DNA of 37,697 nt, from the NCBI GenBank assembly GCA_020318295.1, contig GCA_020318295.1_4859.1, one strand, 5' to 3'. The first letter of the stretch is position 1. Each line of letters begins with the position of its first letter. Position numbers and translations under genes: made by a program. The stretch comes from a phage. Below, piece by piece: positions 30,437 to 31,930 of the stretch. The notes beneath the pieces were generated by a model. The model did no database searches. It saw only the letters and a list, made by a program, of their open reading frames with translations, and was not told where the DNA came from.

Positions 30437-31930
30437 TTATTTCTTCTTAGTCAAGAACTTAGGTTCCAGACCATCCACGGCCATCGCCAGTAATGACATT
30501 GCTGTTAAGCAACGCTTACCGCCTTTGACTTCCTGATCCTTGAACATCCAGTATTCCACTGTATTGTCCAGAATTTCATTCCAGTCCCACTTTTCGTCGA
30601 TAACTTTATAAAGCTCCGCCGGTGAGAGATGGTATTTCATTTCCAGTCGGTGGTAGTTATTCTGCATGTACGCTAATGCGGCGGTGATTTCCAACGCACG
30701 GCGCAAACGCGGGTTGCTGTCACACATGTCGCGAATCGTGGTACGCATGAAAGATGTACCAGGTAGCAAATCGAGGGTATAATTAGCACCACTACGTTTG
30801 TAGCCCCATTCATCTTTCAGTGTGTCGCTCAGGTAATGCCACAGAGAGAGGTGATAAAGCAGACCCATCTCCTGTGAGAAGACCATTTTGAACTTAACGC
30901 CTGTGTGACCACCTTTCGCACGGTACTGCGTGAACACGATTTCTTTCAGGTCGTTCACCGAAGCATTCATTGCCTTCGAACGCGCAGTCGGGTATTTCTC
31001 TTCGTTTACACCGGTCTTCGCGTTGTAAGTCTGATCCTGCTTCAACTCACCAGACTTGGTTGCAACCAGCAGGGAGTTAGTTAAGAACGACAACTGACGG
31101 CGCGGGATACCCGCAAACTTCAGATCATCGCCCGCATCGTCCAACAGTTTACCGTTCGCCTTCGGTCCACCACGGCCACCTGCCGCCATTGCTTTACCCG
31201 CATCGTCGGCCAACTGAGCAACGAAGCCCATATAGAAACCACCACGCGCAAACGCAGACGGCCAACGGCTCATCATATTCGATTTCTGCAGGGCATCGTG
31301 GGCGTTCAGGATGTTCTGTTCAGAATCACCGACTTCTGATTTGGCATGTTTCTCTTCCAGAGAAGAGGTGTGCCATTCGGACAGGGAGTCAATCGAGTAC
31401 AACCACGGGTCGAGAATCTTTTTCGCAGAGCGACGGATTGGGTCCGGGAACGGTGTTTCGCGTGCCTTACCAGCCATGTACTCTTTGAAACGTTTTTCGA
31501 CTTCGTCACGGATATAAGCAGAGTAATACTCCTCACCCGCCATGATATCCGAGCCAACCATGTTGTAACGACCTTCGTGGATCAGGTCCAGCACGCCGCC
31601 CGTTGGTGATACTTCTAATCCGTTTGCTTTCGCTGCGGAAATGTACCCTGTTTCCAGACGACTTAATGCAGCCGTAACTTCGGTATCGTATTTCGATCCC
31701 CAGGCCGCATTATAACGTTGCAGAATCATGAAAATGCAGAAGTCTAATAGGGTAGACTTAAAGGTGTTCCCACGACCTGCGAAGCCCATGATGTGGGCAA
31801 AACCACCGTTGAGGTAGTACAAACCATCTTCCCCGCGCTCGTAGTTACCGAGAGCGTGGTCCATGATGGTATATACGTTAAAACGAGGGCGAATCACTTC
31901 ACCCATGACTTGTTTAGCTGGACCTGCCAT
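30437..31930 (-). CDS. RecA/UvsX-like P-loop protein, putative recombinase (497 aa)
   Basis: Gap-free resemblance to the T4 UvsX Walker-A region as I recall it: NGGFAHIMGFAGRGNTFKSTLLDFCIFMILQRYNAAWGSKYDTE versus TGGMQSGLLILAGPSKSFKSNFGLTMVSSYMRQYPDAVCLFYDSE (GG, AG, FKS, RY, YD.E conserved). Confidence 0.45.
   Translation of the reverse strand: MAGPAKQVMGEVIRPRFNVYTIMDHALGNYERGEDGLYYLNGGFAHIMGFAGRGNTFKSTLLDFCIFMILQRYNAAWGSKYDTEVTAALSRLETGYISAAKANGLEVSPTGGVLDLIHEGRYNMVGSDIMAGEEYYSAYIRDEVEKRFKEYMAGKARETPFPDPIRRSAKKILDPWLYSIDSLSEWHTSSLEEKHAKSEVGDSEQNILNAHDALQKSNMMSRWPSAFARGGFYMGFVAQLADDAGKAMAAGGRGGPKANGKLLDDAGDDLKFAGIPRRQLSFLTNSLLVATKSGELKQDQTYNAKTGVNEEKYPTARSKAMNASVNDLKEIVFTQYRAKGGHTGVKFKMVFSQEMGLLYHLSLWHYLSDTLKDEWGYKRSGANYTLDLLPGTSFMRTTIRDMCDSNPRLRRALEITAALAYMQNNYHRLEMKYHLSPAELYKVIDEKWDWNEILDNTVEYWMFKDQEVKGGKRCLTAMSLLAMAVDGLEPKFLTKKK

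Follow-up and report, generated by a model that had tools for sequence, protein, structure and literature searches.

The window, by which we mean the whole 37,697-nucleotide stretch of phage DNA that was analysed, corresponds to SPN3US_0207-0243 of Salmonella phage SPN3US, and the gene considered here encodes a protein that is 100% identical to SPN3US gp216, the DNA being 99.5% identical to SPN3US (Table 1). Salmonella phages SPFM3 and SPFM17 likewise encode a protein that is 100% identical to gp216. A Shine-Dalgarno-like GGAG lies a few bases upstream of the ATG, and the reading frame starts 15 bp past the stop of a 99-residue ORF and ends 46 bp ahead of a 91-residue ORF, with all three on the same strand. 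GenBank and RefSeq both list SPN3US_0216 as a "hypothetical protein", and a UvsX-like label is already found on many related GenBank records for gp216 homologs. Ali et al. (2017) reported that SPN3US has diverged homologs of the T4 DNA polymerase and of UvsX, naming the latter "UvsX (SPN3US gp216)" (PMC5694885); the identity of gp216 as a diverged UvsX homolog was therefore already published in 2017 and is not new.

The two small ORFs that flank the gene correspond in place to the small ORFs gp150 and gp151 of PhiKZ. Two genes downstream of gp216 lies SPN3US_0218, for which GenBank has the label "putative virion structural protein 22" and RefSeq that of "RNA polymerase beta subunit"; its placement relative to gp216 mirrors that of PhiKZ gp149 relative to gp152. 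SPN3US and PhiKZ have a gene order in common, which runs from an RNA polymerase beta (RNAP-beta) fragment through small ORFs to the recombinase gene and a gene on the opposite strand, with RNase H further on. No recombination partners were recognised among the immediate neighbours of gp216; with the exception of the RNAP beta fragment, these all belong to PHROGs that have no known function.

Table 1. Coordinates of gp216, its putative functional parts and its neighbours. Positions are those of the window, residue numbers those of gp216; conservation counts refer to an alignment of 85 homologs.
Feature	Position	Strand	Basis or remark
CDS, SPN3US_0216 (gp216), 497 aa	30437..31930	minus	ATG start
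N-terminus, residues 1-16	31883..31930	minus	coil in model (DSSP)
Walker A / P-loop GRGNTFKS, residues 52-59	31754..31777	minus	conservation in 85 homologs; aligned to UvsX GPSKSFKS
D82-T-E84	31679..31687	minus	D82 and E84 in 85/85; covered by the significant profile alignment
Walker B strand WLYSIDSLSE, residues 176-185	31376..31405	minus	D181 85/85, S182 84/85; predicted beta strand 176-181
Q239, candidate gamma-phosphate sensor	31214..31216	minus	end of the core strand preceding the L2-like loop
L2-like loop, residues 240-276	31103..31213	minus	predicted disorder; 37 residues
R337-A-K339-G-G341, basic pair on core beta strand	30908..30922	minus	R337, K339 and G341 in 85/85; predicted strand 328-338
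Helix, small beta strands and further helices, residues 359-425	30656..30856	minus	predicted structure
C-terminal helices, family-specific, residues 426-497	30440..30655	minus	pLDDT 90-97; conserved across the family including Aeromonas D3-type proteins
SPN3US_0215, 99 aa	31946-32245	minus	phrog_10750, a PHROG of its own, unknown function
SPN3US_0217, 91 aa	30115-30390	minus	phrog_6181, a PHROG of its own, unknown function
SPN3US_0218, 222 aa	29450-30118	minus	PHROG_3233 (RNA polymerase beta subunit), E 9e-94

Similarity to UvsX and RecA

A preliminary description of this DNA, made by eye, pointed to a gap-free alignment with T4 UvsX around the Walker A motif, with shared motifs at identical spacing. 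The diagonal is indeed present, at an offset of +8: A51-G52, F57-K58-S59, Y73, Y81-D82 and E84 of gp216 fall on A59-G60, F65-K66-S67, Y81, Y89-D90 and E92 of UvsX, with 10 identities over 34 residues. The motifs AG, FKS and YD.E are spaced as had been described, but the supposed "GG" comes down to one glycine only and the supposed "RY" is QY in UvsX, with the R one position earlier. The best ungapped score between the two proteins, 31, was reached by 222 of 300 composition-preserving shuffles, so the by-eye motif match is by itself non-significant and the pairwise score no better than chance; BLASTP of gp216 against T4 UvsX returned an E value of 0.82.

At the level of sequence comparison, the similarity of gp216 to UvsX is significant with profiles only. 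When aligned by hhalign, the profile of the family (85 homologs) matched the single T4 UvsX sequence with E 5.9e-4 over 52 gap-free columns, and in local mode it matched a UvsX profile of 65 sequences built from viral contigs with E 3.7e-5 (71% probability), residues 9-97 being aligned with UvsX 31-105. In a search of PDB sequences with the family profile, the top match was T4 UvsX (3IO5, E 0.03), and the matches that followed were to archaeal RadA recombinases only. Matches to Pks13 and an ATP synthase, returned by phmmer from the PDB sequences, had E values above 1 and were dismissed as chance. The sole significant match of gp216 in the profile search was to PHROG_97, "UvsX-like recombinase" (E 2.8e-55), which aligned residues 6-463 to profile positions 39-347. 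T4 UvsX is a member of this PHROG too (E 9.4e-105), its residues 1-364 occupying positions 20-355. No competing P-loop family emerged from Pfam, NCBIfam or the PDB sequences.

The Pfam search of gp216 gave no match at E values up to 10, the NCBIfam search gave none either, and the protein stays below the gathering thresholds for Pfam RecA (PF00154), Rad51 (PF08423) and T4_UVSX_C (PF21134). T4 UvsX (PDB 3IO5), in contrast, passes both Pfam RecA (47.1 bits) and T4_UVSX_C (132.5 bits). A Pfam scan of the 85 homologs produced noise only, in that three of them have weak Rad51 matches (best E 0.018) and none reaches any Pfam model. Although gp216 escapes Pfam, NCBIfam and pairwise BLAST, its fold and its catalytic positions bear out the assignment to the UvsX family.

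The structural model of gp216 predicts a RecA fold over about 290 residues, extending beyond the P-loop. Among its structural neighbours, RecA (e.g., PDB 3CMU and 8AMD) aligned over 286-297 residues at 14-15% identity, and the closest neighbours of the gp216 core are recombinases, which rank above other RecA-superfamily ATPases. The remainder of the protein had been described as not recognisably RecA-like by eye, a description that its RecA-like predicted fold corrects. Compared with bacterial RecA, gp216 is without the N-terminal helix, has about 200 extra residues and has no Pfam RecA match.

Candidate catalytic and DNA-binding sites

The P-loop of gp216 contains the UvsX-type F-K-S, replacing the usual G-K-S/T. 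Within it, G52, N55 and K58 are each found in 84 of the 85 homologs, Gly occupies position 54 in 73, and only S or T occurs at position 59. The corresponding P-loop of PhiKZ gp152 (L086:5753-7192), the ortholog that has been studied best, reads A-S-R-P-N-N-F-K-T, as against A-G-R-G-N-T-F-K-S in gp216, with Ser and Pro at the positions of G52 and G54. Both K58 and E84 are aligned, inside the significant hhalign alignment, to UvsX K66 and E92; we read the latter as the catalytic glutamate that comes after strand beta2. A Walker B motif, which the preliminary description had left to be located, is represented by the invariant D181. The segment WLYSIDSLSE was placed on UvsX VVFIDSLGNL by a relaxed hhalign alignment with low posterior confidence, and the correspondence to the UvsX IDSL is seen only in this low-confidence extension.

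The relaxed alignment also pairs Q239 with UvsX H195, again at low confidence. Only two residues occur at position 239, His in 73 homologs and Gln in 12, and gp216, with its Gln, differs here from the majority of the family. RecA Q194 is presumably the counterpart of UvsX H195 and gp216 Q239, and we propose Q239 as a gamma-phosphate sensor equivalent to the two. Among published UvsX variants, H195Q/A mutants are described (PMC2673438).

By its position in the model, the segment comprising residues 240-276 may be the DNA-binding loop L2. Residues 247-254 and 259-261, with pLDDT below 50, are the only low-confidence part of the gp216 model, and in the family the length of the segment ranges from 23 to 31 residues. 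An 18-residue segment (186-203) stands at the position of L1; neither 186-203 nor 240-276 has sequence similarity to known L1/L2 loops. In a RecA filament, the lysines K248 and K250 extend to the ATP of the adjacent protomer, and the order of the strands, by which R337 and K339 lie on the corresponding late core strand, suggests that these two could be their counterpart in gp216. For L1, L2 and the basic pair alike, these tentative assignments follow from the order of secondary structure elements together with the low-confidence alignment.

Insertions, termini and the homolog family

T4 UvsX has 391 residues and gp216 is 106 longer, in agreement with the roughly 100 residues noted earlier; the idea of a long C-terminal extension is right only in part. 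Because PHROG_97 spans nearly the same profile positions in both proteins, most of the extra length is internal, and it appears to be made up mostly of internal insertions plus a short tail of about 35-70 conserved C-terminal residues. We infer insertions relative to UvsX at about residues 23-37, 103-131, 153-175, 186-203, 240-276 and 296-327. Residues 359-425 of the model probably correspond to the C-terminal domain of RecA and UvsX, and they are followed by the family-specific helices (Table 1), which make up the true extension and within which PHROG_97 coverage stops, at residue 463. The C-terminal third is the best-conserved part of the family, and the consensus of its tail reads ...PFLSTMDLL.M..G.Y.PYWL.

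At the other end of the protein, the model, hhalign and the family alignment all give no counterpart in gp216 of the N-terminal segment of about 30 residues that is found in T4 UvsX. The hhalign alignment starts at gp216 residue 9, which corresponds to UvsX residue 31, such that UvsX residues 1-30 are missing from it, and members of the family have a median of 17 residues ahead of a conserved N18. In RecA and UvsX, the N-terminal helix or segment is the polymerisation element for filament assembly. This segment appears to be absent from the phiKZ-like UvsX clade.

The size of gp216 is a property of the family, since the 105 homologs found in the database (404-636 residues) are mostly 460-510 residues long; none of them has a Pfam domain. 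In another group of jumbo phages, which includes Aeromonas D3 and Vibrio pTD1, tblastn gave matches at residues ~313-490 only, yet the Aeromonas D3 protein is a full-length homolog by hhalign (probability 100%, E 4e-46).

Two sets of homologs depart from the usual length. Four clusters (P0023, P0024, P0026 and P0027) have 635-636 residues, with a conserved N-terminal domain of ~143 residues placed before the same "MAGPAK..." start. A fusion with the upstream 99-residue gp215 was ruled out as the origin of these 635-residue proteins (BLASTP E 1.6). The N-terminal domain matches no PHROG, and the window contains no copy of it; it may stem from a genuine fusion or from an upstream gene that was merged into the gene call. 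Shorter versions of 280-477 residues (P0030-P0032, P0042 and P0045) come from Salmonella phages SPFM1, 5, 8, 9, 12 and 15. They have high HMMER scores, yet their BLASTP alignments extend over 5-13% of the query only, which suggests that the records concerned are affected by frameshifts or faulty annotation.

Proposed recombinase function and the phage nucleus

PhiKZ gp152 is a full-length ortholog of gp216 (30% identity, BLASTP E 2e-54, gp216 residues 13-497 aligned with 11-465), and the two are alike in length, at 479 and 497 residues. PhiPA3 gp175 is also a full-length homolog, with 26.6% identity over 99% of the query. The preliminary view of gp216 as a candidate divergent member of the RecA-like recombinases carried by nucleus-forming jumbo phages is supported by the profile match, the motifs and the orthology to PhiKZ gp152. 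We regard it as likely that gp216 is a highly diverged recombinase gene of the RecA/UvsX family, carried by SPN3US, a phiKZ-like jumbo phage with a chimallin gene; the chimallin, itself diverged, was identified as SPN3US gp244 by Laughlin et al. in 2022 (PMC9365700).

Several relatives of gp216 in the Chimalliviridae have been placed in the phage nucleus. PhiPA3 gp175 is nuclear-localised and has been used for proximity labelling (PMC10643120), EcoRI has been carried into the nucleus as a fusion to PhiKZ gp152 (bioRxiv 10.1101/2024.03.27.586873, PMC8191949), and the "UvsX" of Erwinia phage RAY, gp150, is nuclear (PMC10299810). The PhiKZ and PhiPA3 proteins were each imported into the nucleus of the other phage (PMC11087766). 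For filament formation there is indirect evidence, in that "RecA-like filaments" have been segmented in tomograms of cells infected with 201phi2-1 (PMC9365700). Our literature search found no nuclear-localisation test of SPN3US gp216 itself; by analogy with its PhiKZ, PhiPA3 and RAY orthologs, we infer that it too would be nuclear.

Based on analogy with RecA and UvsX, gp216 would bind ATP at a site formed by Walker A and Walker B (K58 and D181) and would coat single-stranded phage DNA by means of the loops flanking Q239, with ATP hydrolysis depending on E84 and on the basic residues R337/K339 of the neighbouring subunit. Within the nucleus bounded by chimallin, it would then catalyse homology search and strand exchange, which would serve to replicate the phage genome in a recombination-dependent way and to repair it. 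ATPase activity, formation of filaments on single-stranded DNA and strand exchange are thus predicted for gp216, and we have good confidence in its role as an ATP-dependent, single-strand-binding strand-exchange protein for replication and repair in the phage nucleus. Our literature search turned up no study in which recombinase activity was tested biochemically or genetically for a member of the gp216 clade; PDB entry 9gbg was considered as biochemistry of this clade and rejected, as it comes from the UvsX proteins of extremophile phages, which belong to another clade.

Two other functions could be imagined for a RecA-fold ATPase of this kind. The first is that of an accessory or mediator protein, comparable to the RAD51 paralogs or to the phage annealing helper Sak4, which would help, e.g., the host RecA or anneal single-stranded DNA and would form no strand-exchange filament of its own; we consider this improbable. 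The second, which we hold to be very improbable, is that of a ring-forming motor of the RecA superfamily, a helicase or translocase like DnaB, RadA/Sms or KaiC, in place of a recombinase. His at position 239, as found in most of the family, is no argument for a helicase, because T4 UvsX itself has His there (H195), and all structural matches of the model to helicases and KaiC score well below those to RecA, with 198-250 residues aligned compared with 286-297. The PDB sequence matches of the profile being confined to UvsX and archaeal RadA, and PHROG_97 being the UvsX family, likewise speak against a ring motor, as does the presence of a separate DnaB-like helicase in chimalliviruses (RAY gp315, PMC10299810). 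To a chance P-loop match in some unrelated NTPase family, which would accord with the shuffled scores, the BLASTP result and the silence of Pfam and NCBIfam, we give practically no credence, as it is refuted by the PHROG_97 match and the structural matches to RecA.

One point against a strand-exchange protein, the reading that we favour, is the apparent lack of a counterpart to the N-terminal assembly segment. The conserved tail (residues ~426-497) and the insertions might conceivably form a non-canonical filament interface or a surface for the nuclear import machinery, a suggestion to which we attach a small, though not negligible, probability. In either role, they would mark a structurally distinct subclass of recombinases adapted to the phage nucleus. 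A cited review restricts the UvsY mediator and the UvsW helicase to group 2 jumbo phages, and the gp216 clade would seemingly assemble on DNA with no mediator of the UvsY type.

Orthologs of gp216 are in routine use as a nuclear marker and as import cargo in research on the phage nucleus. To this our analysis adds a confirmation of the family assignment from the fold and from the catalytic positions, a corrected location of the extra length, and the observation that the canonical N-terminal polymerisation element appears to be missing.
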